A stretch of DNA of 64,000 nucleotides from Candidatus Latescibacterota bacterium (GTDB lineage Bacteria; Latescibacterota; UBA2968; SICM01), in NCBI GenBank assembly GCA_965217865.1, contig CBDCJO010000002.1, positions 1,632,001-1,696,000 of the forward strand, read 5' to 3'. Below the pieces are notes generated by a model. The model was not told where the DNA came from. It searched no databases and was given only the letters and a program-made list of their open reading frames with translations. Below are positions 21,421 to 29,195 of the stretch, piece by piece. Numbering within the stretch: the first letter of the stretch is position 1; every line of letters starts with the position of its first letter. A program made the position numbers and the translations under genes.

Positions 21421-22584
21421 TGTTATAACCCAGGAATAACTTGACAAAGTAATGGATTCGTCTTATGGTTCCTTATGCCCTTATCCAAGGAGGAACCGAT
21501 GAAAATGGGACGTCCATTGCAGCCATTGAACCTTAGTGATGAAGTCCGAAGTGAATTGAAGGCGATATCTGGTTCGCGGATCTTACCGCATTCTTTGGTG
21601 CGCCGTGCGAAGATCATACTGATGAGTGATATCGGACTCACGAATCTACAGATAGGCCAGAAGCTGGGACTGTCCTATGCCACGATTGGGAAATGGCGTA
21701 ATCGTTATTGTGCTCAAGGGCTGATGGGGCTTTACGACGAGATGCGTCCTGGAGGTCCACGTTCAATCTCCGACCAGAAGATTGCCAGGCTCATTGGCAA
21801 AACCTTGAAGACAAAGCCAAGGCATGCAACTCACTGGACCTGTCGGTCCATCGGAGCTGAGACTGGGCTCTCCAAGTCCACCGTTCAGCGAGTCTGGAAA
21901 GCCTTCGGACTTCAACCTCATCGACAGAAACACTTCAGACTCTCAAACGATCCCTTCTTTGTAGAGAAGGTCAGGGACGTTGTCGGGCTCTACCTCAACC
22001 CGCCAGACAATGCTATGGTGCTCTGTGTGGACGAGAAAAGCCAGGTCCAAGCATTAGATCGAACGCAACCGATTCTGCCACTGGGTTTGGGTTACGTCGA
22101 AGGCGTAACTCACAACTACATCAGACACGGGACAACGACGCTGTTTGCTGCTCTAGAGATCGCCTCGGGAAAAGTGTTAACACAATGTAAACCGAGACAC
22201 CGTCATCAGGAATTCCTTCAATTCCTAAAGCACATCGAGGCAAACGTCCCGGAGGATCTCGATATTCACCTGGTCTTGGACAACTATGGCACGCACAAGC
22301 ACCCTAAAACCAAACAATGGCTTGCAGCCCGGCCAAGATATCAGGTCCACTATACACCCACTTACGCGTCCTGGCTAAACCAAGTCGAGATCTGGTTCAA
22401 CATCATTACACAAAAGGCAATCCGCCGGGGTTCCTTTCGTAGCGTGAAAGATCTGGTCAATAACATCAAGAAATTCGCCGATCACTACAACTCAAATTCA
22501 AAACCCTTTGTGTGGACTGCCACCGCAGAATCCATCCTCGAAAAGATTAAGCGACTATTTGAACTTATTGGCGGGACACGACAC
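21420..22584 (+). mobile_element. IS630-family insertion sequence
   Basis: Imperfect terminal IRs (GTGTTATAACCCAGGAATAACTT / GTGTCGTGTCCCGCCAATAAGTT), CTAG/TA at both ends, intact transposase. Confidence 0.92.
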
Positions 22585-22587
22585 TAG
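21475..22587 (+). CDS. IS630 transposase
   Basis: HTH, then VDEKSQ, YIRHGT, LDNYGTH, WLNQVEIWF (DDE). Stop codon lies in the right end. Confidence 0.96.
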   Translation: MPLSKEEPMKMGRPLQPLNLSDEVRSELKAISGSRILPHSLVRRAKIILMSDIGLTNLQIGQKLGLSYATIGKWRNRYCAQGLMGLYDEMRPGGPRSISDQKIARLIGKTLKTKPRHATHWTCRSIGAETGLSKSTVQRVWKAFGLQPHRQKHFRLSNDPFFVEKVRDVVGLYLNPPDNAMVLCVDEKSQVQALDRTQPILPLGLGYVEGVTHNYIRHGTTTLFAALEIASGKVLTQCKPRHRHQEFLQFLKHIEANVPEDLDIHLVLDNYGTHKHPKTKQWLAARPRYQVHYTPTYASWLNQVEIWFNIITQKAIRRGSFRSVKDLVNNIKKFADHYNSNSKPFVWTATAESILEKIKRLFELIGGTRH

Positions 22588-22957
22588 CGTAGGCAGTCCA
22601 TGCAGCAGTCTCAGTTACACCGGTTAAATAGCCTCGGATGACCATCTCAACTGGAAATACCGTTAGTTTTTTTCCTACGACTACATTTGGATCTGGAACA
22701 TCAATTATGTGATTTTGGATAATATCTTTTGTGTGTTCAAACCAGAATGCAGATGTTTGAGTTATAACCTGTCCTTTAAATGGAATGTGAGCAAGGCTTC
22801 TATCAAAGGCAGACAGTCTGTCGGTTGATATGAGGAATACTTTACCTTTGTCCTCATAAACATCTCTAACCTTGCCTTTGTATTTCGTTCCTAGTTTTAG
22901 GTTCGTTCCTGTTAGGGTCTGTCCGATTTGTTTTTTGATTATTTCTTCCGCTATCAA
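22585..22957 (-). pseudogene. purC: SAICAR synthetase 5' fragment, truncated by IS630
   Basis: GKVRDVY, STDRLSAFD, IPFKGQV, PVEMVIRGYLTG. TTG start after GGAGG; AT-rich. Confidence 0.88.
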
Positions 22958-23085
22958 TTTTCTTCCTCCAAAAAATTAGTGGTTTATTCAACTTTATAAC
23001 TAGTGATTATACTGCAAAAATGCGATATATCTCCGTCTATTCTGGAAATATACCGAAACAATGTCCAACAGCCTCTTTCCATGTT

Positions 23086-23214
23086 GCCTAACGTTCCGTG
23101 CCCACGAAACCGCCCCCTCCTTCAGGGCGGTTTGGGTCGAGCACTGGCAGTCGGTTTGCGCTGTTGTTCTTTGCAGACCGGATGCCAGGCGCAGCCGTGG
23201 GCACTTTGTTATAT
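23086..23214 (-). other. attC-like recombination site 1 (129 bp, branched palindrome)
   Basis: Minus strand ATATAAC...GTTAGGC. Stems GTGCCCACG/CGTGGGCAC and AAACCGCCC/GGGCGGTTT. Confidence 0.75.
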
Positions 23215-23296
23215 GACGTGCCGCCTGGGTGGTTGTGTGGGCTTGCAGGATGCCAAGCCTCGCGAAACAGACTTTCTTCAAAGAACCTTATGAAAG

Positions 23297-24007
23297 CTAG
23301 CATGCCCTAGCTATCCAGGCTGGAAGAGAGCCCACCAATCGAGTTAAGATGATTCTGGCATTCTCCTCAAAAATCCGAATATTCCCCTCATAAGCTTCCC
23401 CTCCACTGCCACCAACAAGATCTGAAACACCTCGCAAAATTAGACATTTTGTATTGTTGTGAGCTGCTACCCAGGCAATTGCTCCTGACTCCCAATCTCC
23501 CGCAACTGCACCAAACTTTGCCGTCAATTCGGGAATATCTTCCACCATAAGATCACGATCCCCAGAAACCAGAAACGTGCGATTCACTTCTTGAGGATAG
23601 GGTGGCACCAGCCAGGAGAGATCTACTTCAGTTGTGTAATATTCAACCGCGTCCTCGGCGTCCAGCATCTGCTCGATGATGTCATAGACGATTGTCCGTT
23701 CAACCAAGATGATGGTCCCTTTCTCAATCTTCCCTTCAAAACCACCGCAAGTACCAAGATTGACCAAAAGCAAAGGGGACCAACGATCAATAACATATTG
23801 GGTTGATGCTGCTGCTGAGATTTTTCCCCATCCACCTTGAAAGAAGAGAACGGACATAATATCTCCACTGACATCTAAATCAACTGAGAACCACTGCCCA
23901 TAAGGAGAAACAACCTTTTCTGCGTCTGGATATATTTCAGTGATCGCATTCCATTCGACAGTGGCAGAAATGATCACAATGACCTTGGATTCAGATGACT
24001 CATGCAT
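23297..24007 (-). CDS. MTA/SAH nucleosidase-like (nucleoside phosphorylase family), cassette gene
   Basis: GGWGKISAA, NLGTCGG, SGD, DWESGAIA, LRGVSD. Confidence 0.85.
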   Translation of the reverse strand: MHESSESKVIVIISATVEWNAITEIYPDAEKVVSPYGQWFSVDLDVSGDIMSVLFFQGGWGKISAAASTQYVIDRWSPLLLVNLGTCGGFEGKIEKGTIILVERTIVYDIIEQMLDAEDAVEYYTTEVDLSWLVPPYPQEVNRTFLVSGDRDLMVEDIPELTAKFGAVAGDWESGAIAWVAAHNNTKCLILRGVSDLVGGSGGEAYEGNIRIFEENARIILTRLVGSLPAWIARAC

Positions 24008-24054
24008 GTTCAGGTCAAATCCACTCTCAGTATATGTTTCTTTTGCGGCATGTC

Positions 24055-24184
24055 ATATAACGTCCTGCAAGGCTCCCGAAATGGCCACGTCTGCAAAAGG
24101 ATTAATTGTTTCTCAATAAGCAAGAGTGGTAAACTCGTGGCCATTTGGGTCGAGTGTAAGCGAGCCGGGAGCGTGCTGTTATGC
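24055..24184 (-). other. attC-like recombination site 2 (130 bp, branched palindrome)
   Basis: Minus strand GCATAAC...GTTATAT. Stems GCTCCCG/CGGGAGC and AAATGGCCACG/CGTGGCCATTT. Shares TTTGGGTCGAG with site 1. Confidence 0.75.
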
Positions 24185-24343
24185 GAAGCTGGCGCGGCCC
24201 CCTTCACGCGAAGCCTTCAAGGGGGCCAACATACAGCGCACAACATAGGCAATGGTTTTTCTTTTCTTGTTTTGTTACACCCGGCGTCAACTGCAACGGC
24301 TTGATAGGAGAGCGATGGTTTGAATGGAACACGGATCATTCCA

Positions 24344-24898
24344 TTACGCATCAGAAGGTCCCGGTTCCCATCCAGTATTTGCAGCCCACTGATCAGCTCT
24401 CGCGATGATCTCCCAGAAAATGTCGCTCTTGGAATCGGTGTATTTCTCACGCTCGTCTCGATATCGTTGTGCCAGCTCTTTTTTCTCGGACTCGTATTTC
24501 TCACAATCTTGCTTGTGCACCCGCATGTAATCGCGAAATAAGAGTGGAAACTGCTGGTGCCAGCTGCCGAGTTTTCTGACATGGACGTGCGTTCTTTTCA
24601 TCCTCTGGGTCTCACGAAAATAACGCTTTGTCTTCTCGTATTTCTTTCCCTTTCGCCAGTAATATCCCAGTTTCTCGAGAGGAGTTAGAAATAGCTCAAC
24701 TGGCTCAAGACTCTCGACCGAAATCTGGATATCGATAATCGGTTTTGCAGCAAGGCCGGGTATAGAGGTTGACCCGATGTGATCAATCCTCAGTGCAATC
24801 TCACCCAGAGCGCTTCGCATCTTCTTTCCGATCTCCTCAAATTCCTGTGGCCATTGTGGAGTATAAGGATGGATTTCTATGGGCTCAGGGCATATCAT
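24344..24898 (-). CDS. GrpB/UPF0157 family nucleotidyltransferase-fold protein, cassette gene
   Basis: HIGSTSIPGLAAKPIIDI, HVHV, LLFRDY, Y...K. Confidence 0.9.
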   Translation of the reverse strand: MICPEPIEIHPYTPQWPQEFEEIGKKMRSALGEIALRIDHIGSTSIPGLAAKPIIDIQISVESLEPVELFLTPLEKLGYYWRKGKKYEKTKRYFRETQRMKRTHVHVRKLGSWHQQFPLLFRDYMRVHKQDCEKYESEKKELAQRYRDEREKYTDSKSDIFWEIIARADQWAANTGWEPGPSDA

Positions 24899-25012
24899 CT
24901 TGTTGTCTCTTAACTATTGCCTATGCGGAAGAGGCTCAGAATATATCAGTTCGCCGTAGAATAATTCAAGATGGGGTCGTTGGTTGTTGGGTTTTGCCTT
25001 TGCGCCAGTTTT

Positions 25013-25066
25013 GCATAACTTACGGTATTCCCGAACTTCTACGTAGATTCCTTAATTTCGGGATAT
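25013..25066 (-). other. attI-like site downstream of the integrase
   Basis: First cassette starts at GTTATGC (25019 on minus). Preceded by inverted repeat TCCCGAA/TTCGGGA and not by a full attC. Confidence 0.55.
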
Positions 25067-25171
25067 TCCCCGCCCTTCGCAGATACCTCCCCACGAAGAA
25101 GATACCGGTATATGTTCGTGAATGCCTTGCTATAGGAGAAATCGTTTTTAGGATGAACTCACCTTTGACGG

Positions 25172-26279
25172 TTACATTAAACTATCCAGAGGACTCTGAA
25201 TCTTACCGATATCTCGGGTTGTGACCCTGGTGTAGATTTCGGTGGTCTTAGAACTCTTATGTCCTAATAATTCTTGAATATAACGCAAATCCGTTCCCCG
25301 TTCAAGCAAATGAGTAGCGAAGGAATGCCGCAAGGTATGCACCGACACAGTCTTCTCTATTCCTGCCTTCACATATGCCCGTTGGAATATCTTTTGGACC
25401 GAACGCTCGTGGAGGTGCCGCCCTGGACGGAAACCCAGGGAAAAGCCAAAGCCTGGGTTGGTATTTCTTGACATATACTCGTAACGCCTCCAGCGCAACT
25501 CTGGAAAGCATGGTATAACGGCCCTTCCTTCTTTTGCCCTGCCGAATATGGATTAGATTTCGATTGGGATCTATGTCCTCTGACCTTAATCGGACCACCT
25601 CACCCAGACGAAGTCCACCGGAGTATGTCAACAACAAAATCGCCCGGTGTTTAGGGTTCCCGACTGCATCCAGGATTCGAATGACTTCTTCGCGACTCAT
25701 GATATTGGGCAATTTTCGTTCCTTTTTGGGACGAGGAAGATTTTCAACGGGAAATGGATACTTCAAGACTTTATTGTAGAGGAATTTCAATGCGCTCACG
25801 CATTGGTTAACATAGCTGTGTGAAGCACCTTTTTCGAGCAAATCATAAACATATTGTCGAACTTCATCCTCCCCCAGGGACTCGGTATCAATTTCATAAC
25901 ACCGAAAATACCTTTCTGCATGTCCAAGGTAAGATTTTCTCGTCTTTGCTCGGTAGCCTCGAAGCCTCAATTCCTGCGCCATTTTAATTAAATGGCCCAC
26001 TGGCTTCGCTGCTGGGATCCGCGAGAAATCCCCTGGATTGCGGAGCGATCTTTCAACCTGAATCCTCTCGCCCTCGAAAAGAATCAATAAGCTTTCCACA
26101 ATCCCCTCCGTGTGGGGCACAGTCCAACATTTTATGTCTGGATCCCAGCGCCGACCCGGGATGCTCTTAATCTTCAGCACACGGTCCGGGGTATAGGGTA
26201 GGTGAACCTTGAGATATCCATTACCTTGCGAACTGATGTAAATGGGTTCTTGGGATAGCCTGACCTGTTGCTTTTCCAT
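25172..26279 (-). pseudogene. Tyrosine recombinase/integrase (SAM-like N-domain plus catalytic domain), +1 frameshift near 25430-25433
   Basis: GLRLGE, HTLRHSFATHLLE, IQELLGH, TTEIYT split across ORFs 25302-26351 and 25172-25498. ATG at 26279 after AAGGAGG. Confidence 0.9.
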
Positions 26280-26547
26280 TGGACCTCCTTCGCGATGGGT
26301 TTTTGTTGATGAAGGCTTAACAAATCGCGTGCCTGGAGGCCATGGCTGCATTTGGTGCGACTACTCCGTTTATATACAGGTATTAACCGATCTGGGAATT
26401 TGGGAGGAATTCTCCGGTGGTGAACTCGATTTTCATTCAGGGGGTTGTTGGCGGGAATGATTCTTTCAGGGCTTCTTTCGAATCCGCTCCAGACGGTTTT
26501 TCAGCATATACAATACGTCATAATTAATTGCGCACACCGGAAGGGCC

Positions 26548-26828
26548 GTGAAACGTCAGACGGGAAAAGCAGTGGCAGTGGCAGGAAAAGGCAAAGGCAG
26601 AGGTCGGAGGTCAGAGGTCAGGGGAAAAGCAGTAGCAAGAAAGGCAAAGGCATCCCGAGCGTCAGGGGTCAGAGGTCAGAGGCCAGGGAAAAGAAAAACC
26701 GTGAAACGTGATACGGCAAAAAAGGCAGTAGCAGTAGCAGGAAAAGCGAAGGCAGAAGCAAGCAAGACCCTTTCGCCCCTCCCCACCGGAATACAGAATA
26801 CAGAAGAAGACATAAATTCAACTCAGCC
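26548..26828. repeat. Mosaic of short intergenic repeats (GAGGTCA/GGGGTCA, GCAGTR, GTGARAC, CAGAATA)
   Basis: The same motifs recur at about 16900, 40820-41080, 42830-43040, 44310-44400, 45690-45770, 48150-48250, 53960-54090 and 56160-56220. Confidence 0.85.
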
Positions 26829-26899
26829 TGCGAGCCCGTTGACGCGAAACTCTCCGGAAAATATGCGCAATTACTTATGTCGTTAATGAATATTAAAAA

Positions 26900-27195: not shown

Positions 27196-27349
27196 AACGG
27201 ACTCCATTAGAAAATGGGTGGAAATTGAGTGTGGGCAGAACTTAATTCGATGACGCGAAGTATTCTCTTAGTTATCAGATTCAATGATCCTCTACTAAAG
27301 ATAAGGGTTTAGAGGAAAGGATAAAATAAAAATCCACGGCCATAAAGGC

Positions 27350-27655
27350 CGTGGATCGTGATTCGGGGATCTGGAAACCAGTGGATCAGAGAATCCGGGG
27401 TTCGTGGATCGTGATTCGGGGATCGGGAAGGCCGTGGTTCGTGGATCGTGATTCGGGAAACCAGGGGATCGGAGAATCCGGGGTTCGTGGATCGTGATTC
27501 GGGGTTCGAAAAGGCGACGGACAAGCTTTTTCATACAAGTGGAAAAATTGAATCGTAATACTGATACAGATAAGCGATAACGAGCAGGTGCGAATCACGA
27601 GAAGATTCGGGGATCGGGAAGGCCGTGGTTCATGGATCGTGATTCGTGATTCGGG
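27350..27655. repeat. Direct-repeat cluster CGTGGATCGTGATTCGGG (4 exact copies plus variants)
   Basis: Copies at 27350, 27403, 27440 and 27486. Related motifs at about 37180-37260, 43000-43035 and 56560-56590. Confidence 0.9.
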
Positions 27656-27686: not shown

Positions 27687-28715
27687 TCAATACCTCTTTG
27701 CGTATCCCTTTTTCAGAAGCTCCCCGTTTAAAAACCGCCCGTTTCTCAGCGCATCTTCCGCCGCCCCTTTTCCCGGCAGGTAAAACAGGTCCGCCAGATA
27801 CCGGTCGTACTTGTCCGGCTTCGTCGTAGTGACTGCCACAGATGTATTTGCTGATAGCGCTGACGCCACGAATGCCCTGGCCTGCTGACCCTCCCTGGTC
27901 CGAAGTTCGGGCGTGTCGATCCCTCTAAGCCGCACTTTCTGTCGAGTCCAAACCTGGAATCCGCAGTCCACGTCCAGCCATATGGTGTCGCCGTCGATCA
28001 CGCGCTCCACGTACGCCAGGTAGGAGTAAAAGGCTGCCCGCGTATCGCTGACCTCCAGAAGCCTGAAAACCGGTTCGCCGTCACCCGGACCCCGAACCGC
28101 CTCCACGAGCGTGCCTTCTTGGGGATTATCGAGCCGATCCAGCGGCCTTTTTAGAAGGATTCCGAACCCCAGATCCAGGCGGAGGCCCCTTCCCCCCGGA
28201 GTTTCTATCAGTCGGTAGGTCCAGGGCTGTCCCCGCTTGGCCCGGAGTCGTGCCACCGGACTCTGTTGCGGTTGCTTAAGGCTCTTTGGGGGGAGAGAAC
28301 AAGCGTGGATCTGGGCGGCCAGTTCCCGGGTGCTCCAACCGTATCTATCTGCTTTCTGAGCAAGGAGATACCGTTCGTCATCAGACGGCAGTTTTATCAG
28401 TCTTCGGTAGTGCGTCCAGGTCAATTTTGAACGCGCGTGCAGAATTGGAAACGACCGGTGAAACCGAAGAGATTCATACAAAATCCTCTCGCTGATCCCC
28501 ACGTCCTTCGCCATCCTGGCAATCACCTGATCTCCGTAACCAGCCTTGGCCTTGATGGCAAGCAAATGCGCCTGGATCAATCCCCCAACCTCCCAGTAGG
28601 TCCTGACCTTTTCCCGTTCCACTGCCTGACGAGCCCGTTCCTTCCCCGCACTTAGAACCTTTGCGACTTCGCCGCGTAAGGCACTGTAGGTATTTACGAT
28701 AGGGAAATTAGGCAT
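27687..28715 (-). CDS. DUF1016 N-terminal (YhcG-like) domain fused to a thermonuclease (SNase) domain
   Basis: YWEVG, YGDQVI, LTWTHY, WSTREL in the N-terminus; VIDGDT, VRLRGIDTPE, DKYDRYLA, LLKKGYA in the C-terminus. Confidence 0.85.
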   Translation of the reverse strand: MPNFPIVNTYSALRGEVAKVLSAGKERARQAVEREKVRTYWEVGGLIQAHLLAIKAKAGYGDQVIARMAKDVGISERILYESLRFHRSFPILHARSKLTWTHYRRLIKLPSDDERYLLAQKADRYGWSTRELAAQIHACSLPPKSLKQPQQSPVARLRAKRGQPWTYRLIETPGGRGLRLDLGFGILLKRPLDRLDNPQEGTLVEAVRGPGDGEPVFRLLEVSDTRAAFYSYLAYVERVIDGDTIWLDVDCGFQVWTRQKVRLRGIDTPELRTREGQQARAFVASALSANTSVAVTTTKPDKYDRYLADLFYLPGKGAAEDALRNGRFLNGELLKKGYAKRY

Positions 28716-29195
28716 CGGGACAGAAGCAGAATAATATAGTGGTAGTAACCGCTCAGTTAAAGTGGTTCTTTCGGCGGTGCCAAGATGGGCCGCCGAACGG
28801 GACAGTGATGAGCGGTTAACGAGTTCAATGGCTCACGAACCCGCGTCTGACCCTTTCTTTGTCTCAGAATTACGCGCAGGACAAAATTCATCCCTCAGTT
28901 CCCGGTCCCTTTACCCTATTACGGGTTTCGCTTCGCCGCATCCAAAAAAAGATGTGCGGTTTTTGCGTAGAAGCATCGCGCGGGTAATGAATTCACGAAC
29001 TACGAATATAATGTCCCCCGCAGCCGGACTTTTTTCCCCAACCCATCTCCGTCCTTCGACTACGCAACGTTGACGCGCTGCTCCGCTCAGGATGTTTTCA
29101 TTATGGTTTATGATTCCCTTTACTAGCGGGGGGTCGCTTCGTCCAGACAAACCAAAAAATATATATGCTTTCCATTGAAGTTGTAAAGTAAGAAT

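Follow-up and report, generated by a model that had tools for sequence, protein, structure and literature searches.

Integrons are both defined and searched for by the insertion that sets the IntI integrases apart from other tyrosine recombinases, and by models of the classical attC sites. According to the accessible part of Cury 2016 (PMC4889954), the extra segment of IntI reads the bases flipped out of the folded attC, no complete integrons are present in Firmicutes as judged on that basis, and only 50 recombinases lacking the insertion lie near modelled attC sites, these being judged not to be IntI. Smyshlyaev et al. (bioRxiv 10.1101/542381), as far as the available text goes, describe the insertion as specific to IntI and absent in general from an 'Integron-like' subgroup, and they group insertion-less IS91/IS3 enzymes with IntI, with no cassette arrays ascribed to them there; the protein group itself is already in print, without arrays. 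We describe here a locus in a 64,000-nt stretch of a Candidatus Latescibacterota genome (contig CBDCJO010000002.1, positions 1,632,001 to 1,696,000; hereafter the window), in which a tyrosine recombinase gene of this insertion-less kind heads an insertion site and an array of cassettes. We put the probability that these form an integron-type capture platform run by the recombinase at roughly 80%. Comparative sequence evidence strongly supports a system that is integron-like in its working and yet lies outside the family defined by IntI. It is likely to represent another kind of gene capture, the second in bacteria and a widespread one, which the standard searches for integrons would miss.

All parts of the platform lie on the minus strand. 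The recombinase gene (25172..26279) encodes SAM_4 and Phage_integrase catalytic domains in two frames, with a frameshift near 25437, and directly after its stop codon come a leader with an attI-type site (25019..25171), a first cassette (24061..25018) with a GrpB gene (24898-24344), a second (23092..24060) with a gene of the PNP_UDP_1 nucleosidase/phosphorylase family (24007-23297), and the 5' part of a third (22586..23091), in which purC is present as its 5' half (22957-22586). The first two cassettes end in attC-type hairpins, a 130-bp palindrome at 24055..24184 and a 129-bp palindrome at 23086..23214. An earlier sequence-only reading of this DNA had listed these parts in this order, with the array 3' of the integrase gene and co-oriented with it, and each is found where it had been placed.

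The recombinase and its relatives

Reading through the single extra base near 25437 gives a product of 368 residues, with X at residue 282, that contains the catalytic R, K, H-x-x-R, H and Y motifs, all invariant in 52 homologs. The peptide that the sequence-only reading had quoted, GKRRKGRYTMLSRVALEALRVYVKKYQPRLWLFP, is correct and is the short stretch at which IntI carries its insertion. The insertion is absent there, as had been claimed, with about 41 residues missing, and the motif spacing and the alignment with VchIntIA (PDB 2A3V) agree on this. VchIntIA is the best match by sequence among solved structures (154 bits), aligning in two pieces with query residues 265-286 corresponding to its residues 176-239. 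The distance between K-x-x-K-x-R and H-x-x-R-H is 59 residues here, 58-62 in the measurable homolog rows (two mis-matches and several unmeasurable rows being set aside) and 99-100 in nine IntIs (one artefact and six unmeasurable sequences being set aside). The protein does not score as a normal IntI, reaching 218 bits with the integron-integrase model TIGR02249 against a cut-off of 265, and it is also below the cut-offs of the XerC (176/335), XerD (174/330) and XerA (NF040815; 203/220) profiles, the last of which is narrowly exceeded by two intact homologs.

In a quick tree of 66 rows, from which near-duplicates and short rows were left out and for which two Xer-like proteins encoded in this genome served as the root, all 13 IntIs fall into a single clade with SH-aLRT support of 100. 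The window integrase lies outside it, in a group with support of 92 that also includes three recombinases associated with IS91 and most of the homologs; the basal branching is unsettled. The earlier proposal of a separate integrase clade is borne out only in part: the protein is separate from IntI, and the IS91-associated recombinases fall among the family.

The predicted structure of an intact homolog, with a predicted local distance difference test score (pLDDT) of 89, matches the XerA and IntI folds about equally well: Z is 21.5 for XerA 4a8e, with a root-mean-square deviation (rmsd) of 9.8 over 259 residues, and 20.0 for IntI 2a3v, with an rmsd of 4.0 over 255. The 70 N-terminal residues, modelled with confidence (pLDDT 94.9), are predicted to fold as a HARP/UvsW-type domain (26043..26252 in the window integrase), with matches to the N-terminus of UvsW (Z 8.3, rmsd 1.6 over 60 residues), XPB (Z 6.0) and the HARP domain of SMARCAL1 (Z 4.3, rmsd 1.7 over 47). 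Domains of this type bind forked DNA. Pfam HARP matches the window integrase at an E-value of 0.008, under its cut-off, and reaches E<=0.01 in five of 52 family proteins. A W-x6-W motif marks the domain in 51 of 70 rows, and some of the rows that lack it are fragments.

Cassette units, hairpins and the insertion site

The end of the integrase gene and its 150-bp leader are present in ten copies in contig C2 of this genome, at 80-100% identity, and all of them diverge immediately after GTAAGTTA (GTAAG|TTA). This bears out the attI-like site that had been proposed, with its G at 25019, and suggests a crossover G|TT between 25019 and 25018. The count of ten derives from BLAST and alignment, searches with attI patterns having recovered four and then nine. 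The cassette start at the window attI recurs behind a second leader, and similar starts occur at four other places; the first cassette has ends matched at 9 or more of 12 positions behind seven of the ten leaders, compared to 19 of 2000 random starts. As judged from sequence, new cassettes sit directly behind the leader after the integrase stop codon. The leader region folds no better than chance (z -0.7), as is expected of an attI-type site. Of 30 leaders from homologs, 19 have direct repeats with a best period of 36-41 nt; those of the window leader are weak, with only 13/24 matches. We also note that two of the leader copies, at C2:1982755 and C2:1990097, are in facing orientation at a distance of 7.3 kb, and that cassettes and insertion sequence (IS) elements lie between them.

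The cassette units are defined by their own ends. The 14 bases that follow the attI GTTA in cassette 1 are the reverse complement, at 12 of 14 positions, of the flank preceding that cassette's own hairpin, compared to 3 of 14 for the present right neighbour of the hairpin, and cassette 2 behaves similarly (12/14 for its own start, 4/14 for the neighbour). This complementarity within each cassette fixes both the units and the G|TT crossover: a unit begins with the TT behind one crossover, closes with the G of the following one and has an oriented hairpin at its end. Its two ends can pair along some 18 bases, with a fixed mismatch at base 11. Among 36 consecutive site pairs in the arrays of homologs, a cassette's own start is the better match in 30 and the worse in four, with means of 7.3 versus 4.4 of 10 positions. 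In the 29 pairs kept for a 3-base match, outer-stem positions 4-5 pair in 97-100% and positions 8-14 in 66-97%, and position 7 is an A/C mismatch in 23; in eight class 1 cassettes, pairing at positions 8-14 is 12-38%. For an outer-stem control beside the true IntI genes of the phylum, no consecutive pairs were recovered (n=0).

Both palindromes read TAAC-A ... C-GTTA on the coding strand, as had been described, with TAAC at 24181-24178 and GTTA at 24061-24058 in hairpin 1 and at 23211-23208 and 23092-23089 in hairpin 2. The bottom strand folds better than the top in each, at -26.0 versus -21.6 kcal/mol (z -4.7 and -4.2) for hairpin 1 and -34.2 versus -31.0 kcal/mol (z -5.0 and -3.7) for hairpin 2, and none of 200 shuffles folds as well. 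The modelled circle junctions fold at -43.7 and -50.8 kcal/mol, versus -30.5 and -35.6 for the sites in the array. Just before hairpin 1, at 24185-24215, lies a GC-rich hairpin that is also present ahead of several further sites of this genome.

The geometry of these sites is not that of standard attC. The inner arm is three or four bases longer on the R' side (offset +3/+4) in 64 of 77 measurable family sites, while the offset is 0 in five of six measurable class 1 sites. Using two rules of our own, distinct from the model in IntegronFinder, the classical L-box with its one extrahelical base is present in none of 76 family sites and in neither window site, and the family geometry is present in 61 of the 76 and in none of 17 classical sites. 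Because the automatic class 1 attC set held wrong calls, those 17 are a cleaner set chosen by the classical rule itself, so that only their failure under the family rule is informative. Hairpin 2 conforms to the family rule; hairpin 1 is slightly degenerate, with an extra internal loop, and conforms to neither, and a close paralog of it at C2:4500793 conforms to the family rule. Genome-wide, 38 sites pass the family rule.

The same system might instead use double-stranded chemistry in the manner of Xer, with the palindromes acting only as paired binding arms. The enzyme does resemble Xer where IntI has its insertion, and the sites are near-symmetric and fold on both strands. However, the arm sequences vary freely between cassettes while their complementarity is kept, it is only when the bottom strand folds that the A/C mismatches next to the core and at position 7 turn into G-T wobbles, and attI and attC have only GTT in common at the crossover, which is too little identity for strand exchange of the Xer type. 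We consider double-stranded chemistry unlikely on these grounds.

Homologous loci and the state of this array

A genome scan confirmed at least 586 relatives of the recombinase, and the best 80 of these, kept as homolog loci, are from Bacillota, Bacteroidota, Ignavibacteriota, Nitrospirota, Chloroflexota, Atribacterota, Latescibacterota and archaea. For 46 of the loci at least 1.5 kb of DNA lies downstream, and these contain 105 hairpins in 195.6 kb of downstream DNA and 21 in 205.8 kb upstream, with two or more hairpins in 30 loci and one in nine. Of the downstream hairpins, 79 read TAAC-A...C-GTT on the integrase strand and one is reversed, compared to one of 21 upstream in the same polarity. 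Within 230 nt of the stop codon, 48 of 64 loci have a cassette-start motif; the reverse strand has one in six of 64, and upstream control windows in 10 of 232. The first genes of the 46 loci give only four pairwise hits, and two loci in one genome (L068 and L069) have identical leaders and different first cassettes. The recombinases are followed by variable gene arrays with the same oriented palindromes, not by fixed neighbours. One family member, on a mobilizable plasmid of Rufibacter tibetensis (L123), heads eight co-oriented short genes.

Several observations weigh against this interpretation. The IS91-associated recombinases within the family have a transposase, not an array, downstream, and thus protein sequence alone does not predict an array. 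Seven of the 46 homolog loci have no hairpin in up to 5 kb, and no attI-type motif is found in 16 of the 64. Of the 70 rows, 19 lack the W-x6-W motif, among them those of the array-heading L045, L058 and L065, and the idea that the HARP domain is a necessary substitute for the IntI insertion is unsupported by these three. The p-value of 2e-5 for the matched ends in homolog arrays is overstated, since the loci are partly kin, and the hairpin detector required TAAC...GTTR, so that other site types are uncounted. The assembly is scored as 9.3% contaminated, and copy counts may be inflated; the genome also has a few sites of classical geometry, four passing only the classical rule. No joint between cassette ends is present among the read-run contig matches, although contigs drop rare forms and this is evidence in neither direction. 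Finally, true IntI is encoded in 15 of 151 genomes of the phylum, so that IntI cassettes circulate here.

This last point raises the possibility that these are classical cassettes, mobilised by a true IntI that acts from elsewhere, the recombinase being a bystander and the array an attC cluster without an integrase (CALIN). The judgement in Cury 2016 (PMC4889954) on recombinases without the IntI domain near attC sites is in keeping with this, as is a classical-looking attC within cassette 3, described below. Against it, this 96%-complete genome contains no match above the IntI cut-off (at the contamination given above), the insertion site is tied across phyla to the 3' end of the family gene in the 48 of 64 loci already noted, and no family site has the classical L-box. 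The arrays beside true IntI genes of the same phylum are also different, lying upstream and on the other strand with an offset of +1 in seven of nine measurable sites, versus the +3/+4 of the family, and we regard an IntI origin as quite improbable. Three true IntI genes of the phylum (L089, L091 and L099) have an apparent cassette-type start shortly after the stop codon.

A role for the gene as helper recombinase to a rolling-circle element like IS91, with the palindromes as small transposons or repeats of the repetitive extragenic palindromic (REP) type in a decaying island, is very improbable, and is largely refuted by the matched cassette ends: the nearest characterised kin are IS91-associated and the region is rich in IS elements, but no IS91 transposase follows the gene, and dispersed repeats would not yield cassette-specific matched ends, one orientation and a fixed insertion point behind the gene.

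The copy of the capture platform in the window is itself damaged. Contigs from read runs X1 and X2, which may be from the source population, align to the window across the frameshift with no gap, and a sequencing error is rejected on these grounds. Contigs from X8 and X10, from two other studies, differ at 3 of 589 and 2 of 309 letters and have one base fewer at 25437; a programmed frameshift is unlikely because they simply lack the extra base. The extra base is real and strain-specific. The X8 contig tracks the platform from 25274 to 25016 and then has 26 different letters, and neither X8 nor X10 has cover over the nucleosidase gene, a pattern that fits the same platform with another first cassette. 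Among the ten leader copies, only that of the window has a full-length integrase gene, and since this one gene is frameshifted, the capture system in this strain is probably idle and decaying.

The purC 'fragment' with which the array had been thought to end is indeed the 5' half of the gene, but it is not the end of the array. It is cut by an IS630 copy (21435..22585, plus strand), and the 3' half lies about 51 kb away at C2:1603340-1603936, behind an inverted and identical IS630 copy, with the remainder of cassette 3 at C2:1603322-1604792. The simplest reading is that IS630 inserted into purC and that an inversion of about 51 kb between the two copies, one of them at this end, then split the array. 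No continuation is found directly beyond IS630 in the window. The array resumes at C2:1603322 with this remainder of cassette 3. The start of cassette 3 matches a flank at C2:1604231 at 10 of 12 positions, and a remnant of IS110 breaks up the hairpin there. HIT-family and GNAT-family cassettes come next, with ends matching at 10 and 11 of 12 positions, and after them a further start; the array thus held at least five whole cassettes. Within cassette 3, after purC, there is a classical-looking attC at C2:1604055-1604174, judged by eye and unscored by the geometry rules, which may mean that a family-type cassette has taken up a classical one. GTTGGAC, at window position 23069, is a possible start to match it. 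At C2:5499042-5499932 the genome has another purC-like gene, of full length and with a single TGA within the matched stretch. In several C2 arrays, hairpins are often broken by IS110- and IS3-like elements at the R' half or immediately ahead of it, as if these elements targeted the sites.

A scan of the platform gave five promoter-like sites, with 4.6 expected by chance, one of which (25305-25277) points toward the array; it gave no terminator-like site, and the Rfam scan no relevant match. Upstream of the integrase there is repetitive non-coding DNA at 26540-26840, a high-copy region of CTGACCTCTGAC-type repeats with high contig depth, similar DNA preceding the leader copy at C2:4999306, and non-coding tandem GAATCACGATCCACG-type units at 27320-27530. 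A 342-residue gene at 27687-28715 combines a DUF1016 N-terminal domain with a staphylococcal-nuclease domain and is followed by a strong hairpin at 28743-28821.

Proposed mechanism and relation to known systems

The unit boundaries, the crossover point, the polarity, the insertion site, the variable cargo and the loss of the IntI segment can all be read from the DNA itself, and they suggest how capture might proceed. A cassette would be excised as a circle, whose bottom strand would fold into a long stem with the crossover in mid-stem, between a one-sided bulge of 3-4 bases and a G-T wobble. The recombinase would recognise the bulge, the wobble and the shape of the outer stem in place of the flipped-out bases that IntI reads, and would join the folded bottom strand to the double-stranded attI at G|TT, the junction being resolved by replication as in classical integrons. 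As a free circle would fold 13-15 kcal/mol better than a site in an array, integration would be favoured over excision. The HARP-type domain may aid the binding of forked or partly single-stranded DNA, and it would not be required, because family members without it also head arrays.

Taken further, we lean, with some reserve, towards an undescribed second class of integron, one that captures genes actively with a recombinase lacking the IntI insertion and a different folded-DNA code (a one-sided bulge, a long outer stem and a fixed G-T wobble), that occurs across Bacillota, Bacteroidota, other phyla and archaea with many insertion sites per genome, invisible to current searches, and that may carry resistance-type genes and possibly reflects the state from which IntI arose. 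If so, the census of gene-capture platforms would change and there would be another way to recombine folded single strands. The origin of IntI would become testable as a question of what the insertion added, the order of events being left open by the base of the tree. There would also be a cassette pool that nobody monitors. In this genome, a gene at C2:1987361-1986828 (L167:129-602) passes the NCBIfam model for DfrA1-like trimethoprim resistance (253.5 versus a cut-off of 250) and lies downstream of the leader copy at C2:1990097, behind a cassette start of the family type; no family-type hairpin of its own was found, and a similar copy begins at C2:345476. A literature search found no description of an array system with an insertion-less integrase, within the sources in reach (subscription papers and some supplements were beyond it), and the accessible parts of PMC8618304 and bioRxiv 2024.07.02.601686 add nothing further on such a system.

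Among known proteins, the 'Integron-like' subgroup shares the same protein neighbourhood and the same motif spacing (58-59 residues). Its IS91-associated members are followed by a transposase, and an IS91 rolling-circle transposase is present directly downstream in the IS91-associated controls and absent here, where leader, attI and GrpB follow instead. The protein resembles Xer in fold, XerA and IntI 2a3v being tied in this; the target of Xer is a single fixed dif site rather than an array of variable cassettes, and this genome has separate Xer-like genes.

The system is closest to classical integrons, and among these to the sedentary chromosomal ones, with a tyrosine recombinase beside its insertion site, a G|TT crossover, a G beside AAC on the bottom strand, and cassettes that consist of a gene plus a hairpin and have self-complementary ends. 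Co-orientation of integrase and array alone is not new, since inverted-integrase integrons (Treponema and others) are described in Cury 2016 (PMC4889954, accessible part), and archaeal integrons with a downstream attI and an IntI domain in the available text of Ghaly 2022 (PMC9668308); in both, the IntI-specific domain was the basis on which the integrases were chosen, and they contain it, whereas the window integrase lacks it. Self-pairing of classical cassettes over 9-11 nt is likewise in print (PMC2727003, accessible part), so that the principle is known and the extension past a fixed mismatch is the difference. The family departs from classical integrons in the absence of about 41 residues of the IntI insertion and, in most members, the presence of an N-terminal HARP-type domain; in sites with a one-sided bulge of 3-4 bases rather than a near-symmetric spacer with flipped-out bases, and with an outer stem of about 18 bases; and in an attI that sits after the integrase stop codon, in a family that is common in Bacillota.

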